A stretch of 64,000 nt of DNA from Escherichia coli (GTDB lineage Bacteria; Pseudomonadota; Gammaproteobacteria; Enterobacterales; Enterobacteriaceae), in assembly GCF_016903815.1 (NCBI RefSeq), contig NZ_CP069973.1, one strand, 5' to 3'. Numbering within the stretch: the first letter of the stretch is position 1; every line of letters begins with the position of its first letter. Shown here piece after piece: positions 30,021 through 30,936 of this stretch. Position numbers and translations under genes: made by a program. The notes under the pieces are model-generated. The model saw only the letters and a program-made list of their open reading frames with translations, was not told the DNA's origin and made no database searches.

Positions 30021-30936
30021 ATGTTCCTTACCGACGCAAAAATCCGCACCCTCAAGCCTTCTGATAAACCCTTTAAAGTCTCCGATTCTCACGGTCTGTA
30101 TCTGCTGGTCAAGCCGGGTGGCTCCCGCCACTGGTATCTCAAAGCTGGAGGTTGCGTCCCGCACACGGCAGCACCTGAGTAACATAATGCGCCATGCGGT
30201 CCATCAGGAGTTAATCGATACGAACCCTGCAGCAAACCTTGGCGGCGTGACCACACCTCCTGTCAGACGGCACTATCCTGCCCTGCCGCTGGAGCGGCTG
30301 CCTGAACTGCTTGAACGTATTGGGGCATATCATCAGGGCCGTGAACTGACCCGGCATGCCGTTCTGCTGATGCTGCATGTGTTCATTCGCTCCAGTGAAC
30401 TGCGTTTCGCCCGCTGGTCAGAGATTGATTTCACAAACCGAGTCTGGACGATACCCGCGACGCGAGAACCCATTATTGGCGTGCGTTATTCCGGCCGCGG
30501 GGCAAAAATGCGAATGCCGCATATCGTCCCCCTCTCAGAACAGTCCATCGCCATTCTGAAACAGATTAAGGATATCACCGGTAATAATGAACTGATCTTC
30601 CCCGGCGACCATAACCCGTATAAGCCAATGTGTGAAAACACGGTCAATAAGGCACTGCGGGTGATGGGTTACGACACGAAAAAGGATATCTGCGGTCACG
30701 GCTTCCGGGCAATGGCATGCAGTGCGCTGATGGAATCGGGTTTATGGGCAAAGGACGCAGTAGAACGCCAGATGAGTCATCAGGAGCGCAATACCGTGCG
30801 CATGGCTTATATTCATAAGGCAGAGCACCTAGAAGCCCGCAAAGCGATGATGCAGTGGTGGTCGGATTATCTGGAAGCATGCCGAGAATCTTATGCACCG
30901 CCTTATACAATTGGTAAAAATAAGTTTATCCCATAG
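30021..30936 (+). pseudogene. int: P4-type tyrosine integrase of HPI, internally deleted and frameshifted
   Basis: ATG 30021 encodes an integrase N-terminus (MFLTDAKIRTLKPSDKPF...GSRHWYLK) that stops at about 30180. The catalytic C-terminal domain continues in a different frame to 30936. Total span is about 305 codons versus about 420 for intact P4-like integrases. Confidence 0.8.

Follow-up and report, generated by a model that had tools for sequence, protein, structure and literature searches.

Can an HPI whose integrase gene is broken still leave its chromosomal site, and is the broken gene what holds it there? A reading of the locus made from the sequence alone (the sequence-only reading) described a P4-type integrase with an internal deletion and a frameshift, saw no recognisable asnT repeat at the right end and proposed that the island can no longer excise. 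The window, i.e., the whole 64-kb stretch of Escherichia coli DNA that was analysed, holds the island at asnT in positions 29861-60964, with 31,104 bp and 57.7% GC. Its features are compiled in Table 1. Each yersiniabactin gene forms a full-length ORF, and the annotation of strain 222 lists all of them as intact. To judge by gene integrity, the island has been domesticated: its payload is functional and its mobility module is decaying.

The insertion at asnT, the complete ybt cluster and a right-border deletion into the chromosome were found together, as in the fixed ('normal' type) E. coli HPI. Insertion site, set and order of the ybt genes and the right-border junction are the same as in the fixed HPIs of Schubert et al. 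(1999, 2009), PAI IV536 and PAI-CFT073-asnT. The difference lies in the integrase gene int (intB). About 85% of the fixed E. coli HPIs have a full-length int ORF (1875 genomes), whereas the window carries an allele with a deletion of 347 bp.

Table 1. Features of the HPI and its borders in the 64-kb window.
Feature	Position	Strand	Evidence
Sigma-70-like asnT promoter, TTGACA-17-TAATAT	29737..29765	+	Consensus scan, 10/12 matches
tRNA-Asn (GTT), asnT, integration site of the island	29784..29859	+	ARAGORN; Rfam tRNA, 72.6 bits; PGAP in strains 7/2 and 222
Left 17-bp attachment core, attL copy of CCAGTCAGAGGAGCCAA	29844..29860	+	Pattern search, ≤3 mismatches
HPI integrase (int/intB) pseudogene	30021..30936	+	Alignment with intact CFT073 int; MIN6 identity; PGAP 'frameshifted' at identical coordinates
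Native Int codons 1-41, first half of Arm-DNA-bind_3	30021..30143	+	Alignment, profile matches
int deletion junction ...TATCTCAAA/GCTGGAGG...	30143..30144	+	Alignments; junction 56-mer in 333/5426 genomes
12 out-of-frame codons and TAA stop at 30180-30182	30144..30182	+	Reading-frame analysis
+1-frame remainder of int from ATG 30187	30187..30936	+	Reading frames; PRK09692 model 184-396, E 1.7e-38; Pfam
9-bp perfect inverted repeat ACCACCTCC-aca-GGAGGTGGT	30971..30991	.	Read from the sequence, between convergent int and ybtS
Yersiniabactin cargo	31130..59959	ybtS, ybtX, ybtQ, ybtP minus; ybtA, irp2, irp1, ybtU, ybtT, ybtE, fyuA plus	ORF list, PGAP of strain 222
AT-rich (33% GC) tail 3' of fyuA	59960..60964	+	BLAST, tblastn against KMi006; GC content
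Right junction of the island, HPI to yeeJ nt 276	60964..60965	+	Three-way alignment; junction 56-mer in 2070 genomes
yeeJ remnant (inverse autotransporter)	60965..63323	+	BLAST against K-12, profile search, annotation

Structure of the integrase remnant

The remnant was compared with the intact int genes of CFT073, MIN6, O104:H4, KMi006 and Raoultella planticola, within a reference set of four E. coli alleles plus those of the ICE-type HPI and Raoultella. The CFT073 gene is annotated by PGAP as a tyrosine-type recombinase/integrase of 1263 bp and 420 aa, and window positions 29961-30996 were aligned with the corresponding region of CFT073. The sole structural difference from intact int was one clean gap of 347 bp between positions 30143 and 30144. 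It comprises nucleotides 124-470 of the intact gene, i.e., codons 42-157 plus 2 nt, which shifts the reading frame. The remnant measures 916 bp, compared to 1263 bp in the intact alleles, in keeping with the earlier estimate of about 305 codons versus about 420. Neither a repeat nor microhomology was found at the int breakpoints in the junction alignment.

Outside the gap, the retained 916 nt were 100% identical to the intact int of MIN6. The integrase of MIN6 and O104:H4 (WP_000480163.1; 420 aa, P4-like) has the same ATG TTC start, the same stop and the same position 161 bp downstream of asnT as the gene in the window, which differs from it by the missing nucleotides and the shifted frame. 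Family membership by descent is indicated by the identity with MIN6 int and by the start 161 bp past asnT. The uninterrupted ORF of about 420 aa expected of a P4-like tyrosine recombinase was not found at the locus, owing to the 347-bp gap and the frameshift.

The ATG at 30021 starts an ORF of 53 codons (30021..30182), composed of 41 native and 12 out-of-frame codons. The sequence-only reading had described 41 N-terminal codons with a stop near 30180 and a C-terminal domain continuing in a different frame to 30936. Both statements held, with the TAA at 30180-30182 and the rest of int read in the +1 frame from the junction to the TAG at 30934-30936. The first ATG in the C-terminal frame, 30187, corresponds to native Met172 and lies 5 nt past the TAA. 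From this codon, a putative catalytic-domain fragment of 249 aa could conceivably be made. The predicted fragment keeps the whole Phage_integrase domain and, of the central domain, the final 20 residues, and has neither an arm-binding nor a core-binding domain. The inverted repeat downstream of int is probably a terminator hairpin.

Intact Int comprises three Pfam domains, Arm-DNA-bind_3 (PF13356) at residues 3-87, Phage_int_M (PF22022) at 98-191 and Phage_integrase (PF00589) at 225-384. The NCBIfam model PRK09692 matched the N-terminal fragment at model positions 8-46 (E 5e-4) and the C-terminal fragment at 184-396 (E 1.7e-38). As read from these profiles, the matches are homology and not chance. 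With both fragments recognised by the model and the 347-bp gap relative to intact alleles, the earlier description as a P4-type integrase with an internal deletion and a frameshift was confirmed. In the remnant, the arm-binding domain is incomplete, with just residues 1-41 left and 42-87 gone. The core-binding domain has lost residues 98-157, about 60% of the domain, and 158-191 are present in the shifted frame only. The catalytic domain (225-384) is complete and the same as in the intact allele, but its frame is +1 with respect to the start codon. P4-type tyrosine recombinases bind att sites through DNA-binding domains, and we know of no tyrosine recombinase that carries out recombination without its arm-binding and core-binding domains. 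The loss of these domains suggests that recombinase activity would be lost as well.

Distribution of the deletion and of other int alleles

Of 5426 complete E. coli genomes, 333 contained a 56-mer centred on the deletion junction, all but one of them with an exact match. The 56-mer of the undeleted left int breakpoint was found in 1875 of the genomes, and 2251 had the left end of the HPI. The deletion allele is carried by about 15% of HPI-positive E. coli. In the strains 7/2 and 222, PGAP annotates exactly 30021..30936 as a 'frameshifted' pseudogene. Strain 222 (NZ_CP020516.1 3052906-3116905) differs from the 64-kb window by one base. This base is located at 56056 within ybtT and is A in the window and G in strain 222.

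Six carriers were sampled: a Japanese bovine isolate with a genome of STEC size, the laboratory strain ML35, an isolate from a Venezuelan tapir, an O111:H11 strain, a French isolate and a human isolate from the US. They were collinear with the window and showed 0-3 SNPs over 2056 bp. ML35 has an additional G-to-A change that turns TGG into the nonsense codon TGA at window-equivalent position 30417 in the catalytic-domain frame, and PGAP labels this gene 'frameshifted; internal stop'. The intact int of O104:H4 encodes the same protein as that of MIN6 and differs by one base. A description of the exact 347-bp int junction was not found in open-access full text. Karch et al. reportedly described a truncated int in the HPI of O26 STEC in 1999. 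Many genomes of large, STEC-like size and an O111:H11 strain among the 333 carriers would be in line with such an allele in STEC.

A sequencing or assembly artefact, under which int would really be continuous, is a general possibility for any such gap. Here its probability is negligible, since many laboratories, working with many platforms, produced the 333 complete genomes that have this junction, the gap is a clean 347 bp and not a homopolymer slip, and PGAP lists the same pseudogene in seven of the genomes whose annotation was examined. The artefact was rejected on the basis of the 333 genomes. An alignment with a continuous full-length frame, which the sequence-only reading had named as a result that would overturn it, was not obtained; the gap proved real and its junction common to the 333 genomes. 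A deletion that arose repeatedly at a hotspot would account for carriers from very different hosts with genomes of 4.7-5.8 Mb. There is, however, no direct repeat or microhomology at the breakpoints to drive recurrence, and a repeat-mediated recurrent deletion was rejected for this reason. Around the junction, carriers also have one haplotype in common, on which they differ by 0-3 SNPs in 2 kb, and most have one mtfA allele, and their spread over hosts is explained by movement of the HPI between lineages together with its flanks by homologous recombination (PMC2606025). Recurrence is thus quite improbable. The simplest reading of the sequences is a deletion that arose once, on a haplotype of the MIN6/O104:H4 type whose intact form still circulates. 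This single origin is supported by the breakpoints without repeat or microhomology, the 332 of 333 exact junctions and the few SNPs among carriers. After the single event, the allele would have spread vertically and by recombination.

The remnant could also have been kept for a function. A 249-aa protein made by termination-reinitiation at ATG 30187 might, for example, interfere with asn-tRNA island integrases or act in a nicking or topoisomerase-like manner. The in-frame ATG at 30187 closely follows the stop at 30180-30182 and has a weak GAG 7 nt upstream, the whole catalytic Pfam domain is kept, and the six sampled carriers showed no indels. On the other hand, the nonsense codon of ML35 falls within this frame, giving no sign of purifying selection, and the divergence is too low for measuring selection. 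Recombinases deprived of their arm- and core-binding domains do not, as far as we are aware, recombine. A functional remnant is therefore very unlikely. The same small chance is given to the idea that the putative fragment of Int residues 172-420 is retained, modulating the integrases of asn-tRNA elements (pks island, ICE-type HPI) and shielding asn tRNA loci against additional integration or excision events. The preferred reading remains a pseudogene that originated in a single deletion.

Other int genes were inactivated in a different way. In FDAARGOS_1249, an IS3-family element interrupts int after about 400 bp, which represents an independent inactivation. For ECOR72, intB::ISSfl14 is described (PMC2606025). 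Both integrase genes are located in islands without attR, like the one in the window, but were inactivated by IS insertion and not by an internal deletion.

Start codons also varied among the int alleles. The genes of CFT073 and Nissle 1917 start with ATA TCC and those of R. planticola and KMi006 with ATG TCC. The window haplotype starts with ATG TTC (S2F). Counted with 32-mers, the ATA-TCC start was present in 904 complete E. coli genomes and the ATG-TCC start in 82. ATA can serve as a weak start codon, and PGAP still annotates int with the ATA start as a CDS. The start codon may be crippled in a large share of the E. coli HPI integrases that count as intact. Among GTDB representative genomes, a 26-mer from the int 5' end matched R. 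planticola ATCC 33531 only and no Yersinia locus. The int of this strain (NZ_JMPP01000028.1) encodes 420 aa and differs from that of MIN6 in 3 of 1263 nt, and the identity over a region of 1.8 kb was 99.6%. This near-identity points to a very recent sharing of the island between the two genera.

Attachment site and borders of the island

On the left side, homology to K-12 stops at the 3' end of asnT at about 29863 (BLAST against the K-12 asnT region). The asnT promoter is reported to drive int transcription in the integrated HPI and in ICEKp1 (PMC13023037, PMC8209727). Rfam searches and promoter and terminator scans of positions 28500-31300 detected nothing beyond two tRNAs and the asnT promoter. 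A second copy of the 17-bp sequence CCAGTCAGAGGAGCCAA was not found in the 64-kb window with up to three mismatches allowed. The single copy at 29844-29860 agrees with the earlier statement that a recognisable asnT repeat is lacking at the right end. A hidden or degenerate attR in the window was likewise discarded at ≤3 mismatches; the right junction at 60964/60965 has no repeat.

On the right side, homology to K-12 resumes at 60965, which corresponds to nt 276 of yeeJ (BLAST). The three-way alignment showed a microhomology of 1 nt at the junction 60964/60965. K-12 sequence of 588 bp is absent, comprising the asnT-yeeJ spacer and the 5' end of yeeJ. The 56-mer of the right junction was present in 2070 complete E. 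coli genomes, and 2040 genomes covered at least 80% of window positions 59900-64000.

The sequence that lies beyond this point in an ICE-type HPI was read from KMi006. The ICE-type HPIs, which also include ICEEc1 of ECOR31 and ICEKp1, have the ybt cluster and the AT-rich tail in common with the window. KMi006 matched the window from ybtE through fyuA and the tail to 60964/60971 with 98.8-99.6% identity. Unlike the window, KMi006 continues with the rest of a gene of 308 aa, followed by a 61-aa gene of the AlpA family and by transfer genes, TrbC/VirB2 and a lytic transglycosylase among them. Its HPI is located at another asn tRNA (NZ_CP091691.1 750000-755500), beside a frameshifted yeeO, and a further tRNA-Asn lies at a distance of 1.7 kb. 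Its int is intact and, with 41 nt differing from MIN6, more divergent. ICE-type HPIs have 17-bp repeats on both sides and are able to excise (PMC2801613, PMC13023037). The position of the AlpA-family gene in KMi006 lies beyond the right deletion breakpoint. Its protein had no tblastn match in the window (best E 1.8 over 9 aa). Both attR and the AlpA-family gene for a putative (Hef-like) excision factor are missing from the right end of the island in the window.

The AT-rich tail holds the 5' part, about 119 codons (60612-60964), of the hypothetical gene whose complete form, of 308 aa, is present in the ICE-type HPI. After its ATG, an A-run differs in length by 1 nt (60612-60650; MSKKISAIAY... 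in the window and MSKKYQPLLITHY... in KMi006). The original start is out of frame, and PGAP consequently starts the ORF at the internal ATG 60651. The resulting ORF 60651..61361 is a chimera of 104 HPI-derived codons fused in frame to a yeeJ fragment. The HPI-derived N-terminus of 105 aa had no Pfam match and no meaningful PHROG match. A separate function for it was rejected, since it is nothing more than a 5' piece of the 308-aa hypothetical gene. The yeeJ remnant lacks its first 275 nt through the right-border deletion, has a further internal deletion of about 3.7 kb at 61288/61289, where K-12 nt ~607 joins nt ~4301, and is annotated as a frameshifted partial pseudogene with Ig-like domains. 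In the AT-rich tract 3' of fyuA, KMi006 is about 207 bp longer than the window (window position ~60244-60257). BLAST segments overlap by 14 bp at ~60244-60257, which suggests a small repeat-mediated indel.

Loss of excision and order of events

Excision of the Yersinia HPI needs Int and the island-encoded Hef, according to the summary of Lesic et al. (2004) given in PMC2704930. ICEKp1 with int knocked out no longer excises (PMC13023037). As judged from gene content, all three excision components of the island, int, attR and the excision-factor gene, are missing or broken in the window. The claim that the HPI can no longer excise was supported. Site-specific excision would indeed be lost, but the int lesion does not appear to be the primary cause.

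The right junction is six times commoner than the int deletion, with 2070 versus 333 genomes. In SK1144, the undeleted int breakpoint occurs together with the right junction that lacks attR. Based on these counts and this co-occurrence, the loss of the right end is very probably the older, near-universal event and the int deletion a later step of decay. We infer this order from prevalence and from one explicit co-occurrence, that in SK1144. It agrees with Schubert et al. (2009), in whose study every HPI-positive ECOR strain apart from ECOR31 had a unique deletion at the right border that took the direct repeat and neighbouring chromosomal sequence with it (PMC2606025). The reverse order, in which the int deletion itself immobilised the island as the primary event and the loss of the right end came later or was irrelevant, draws on the presence of both lesions in the window and on the int knockout, which alone stops excision of the related ICEKp1 (PMC13023037). 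It is hardly compatible with the excess of the attR-less junction (2070 versus 333 genomes) and its presence beside an undeleted int in SK1144, nor with a right-border deletion throughout the ECOR HPIs apart from ECOR31 (PMC2606025), and was considered highly improbable.

With the loss of the right end as the older event, an initial right-border deletion would have removed attR, the AlpA-family (Hef-like) factor and part of yeeJ, abolishing site-specific mobility. A single 347-bp deletion on the island already lacking attR would then have turned int into a pseudogene as secondary decay. At most, a stub of 53 aa would be made, possibly along with a free catalytic fragment, and neither would have the DNA-binding domains needed. 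Since there is no attR to recombine with, int would be useless and drift, and selection on it appears to have been relaxed.

The term 'immobilised' applies to the loss of site-specific excision only. The E. coli HPI spreads by conjugative transfer of large chromosomal fragments and homologous recombination (PMC2606025). The immobility of the E. coli HPI and its cause are already known, the loss of the right direct repeat being what fixes the island (PMC2606025; Auvray et al. 2021, PMC8209727; 2026 preprint bioRxiv 10.1101/2025.09.17.676721). The window contains a standard fixed E. coli HPI with a common int pseudogene allele that annotation pipelines already flag. The main value of the result is a correct annotation: the strain has the usual non-excisable HPI with intact yersiniabactin genes, and the island is passed on only by vertical inheritance or, together with its flanks, by homologous recombination. 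PCR or typing based on int will give a product shorter by 347 bp in about 15% of HPI-positive E. coli. Conversely, an 'intact integrase' call is no evidence of mobility, since nearly all E. coli HPIs lack both attR and the gene for the excision factor. The counts of 333 genomes with the deletion and 904 with the ATA start, together with occasional IS insertions, illustrate the stepwise decay of a domesticated island and introduce no new principle.

Two observations concern the chromosomal flank upstream of the island. An IS1 element (21253-21950) is located between a 5'-truncated HD-domain gene and a 5'-truncated hchA (window 20760-22694), which suggests an IS1-associated deletion in this flank. 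At window positions 1-664, ybcL and emrE adjoin fliE. In K-12, both genes are part of the DLP12 prophage region at a different place on the chromosome, and the fli operon in the window probably borders on a prophage or the remnant of one.
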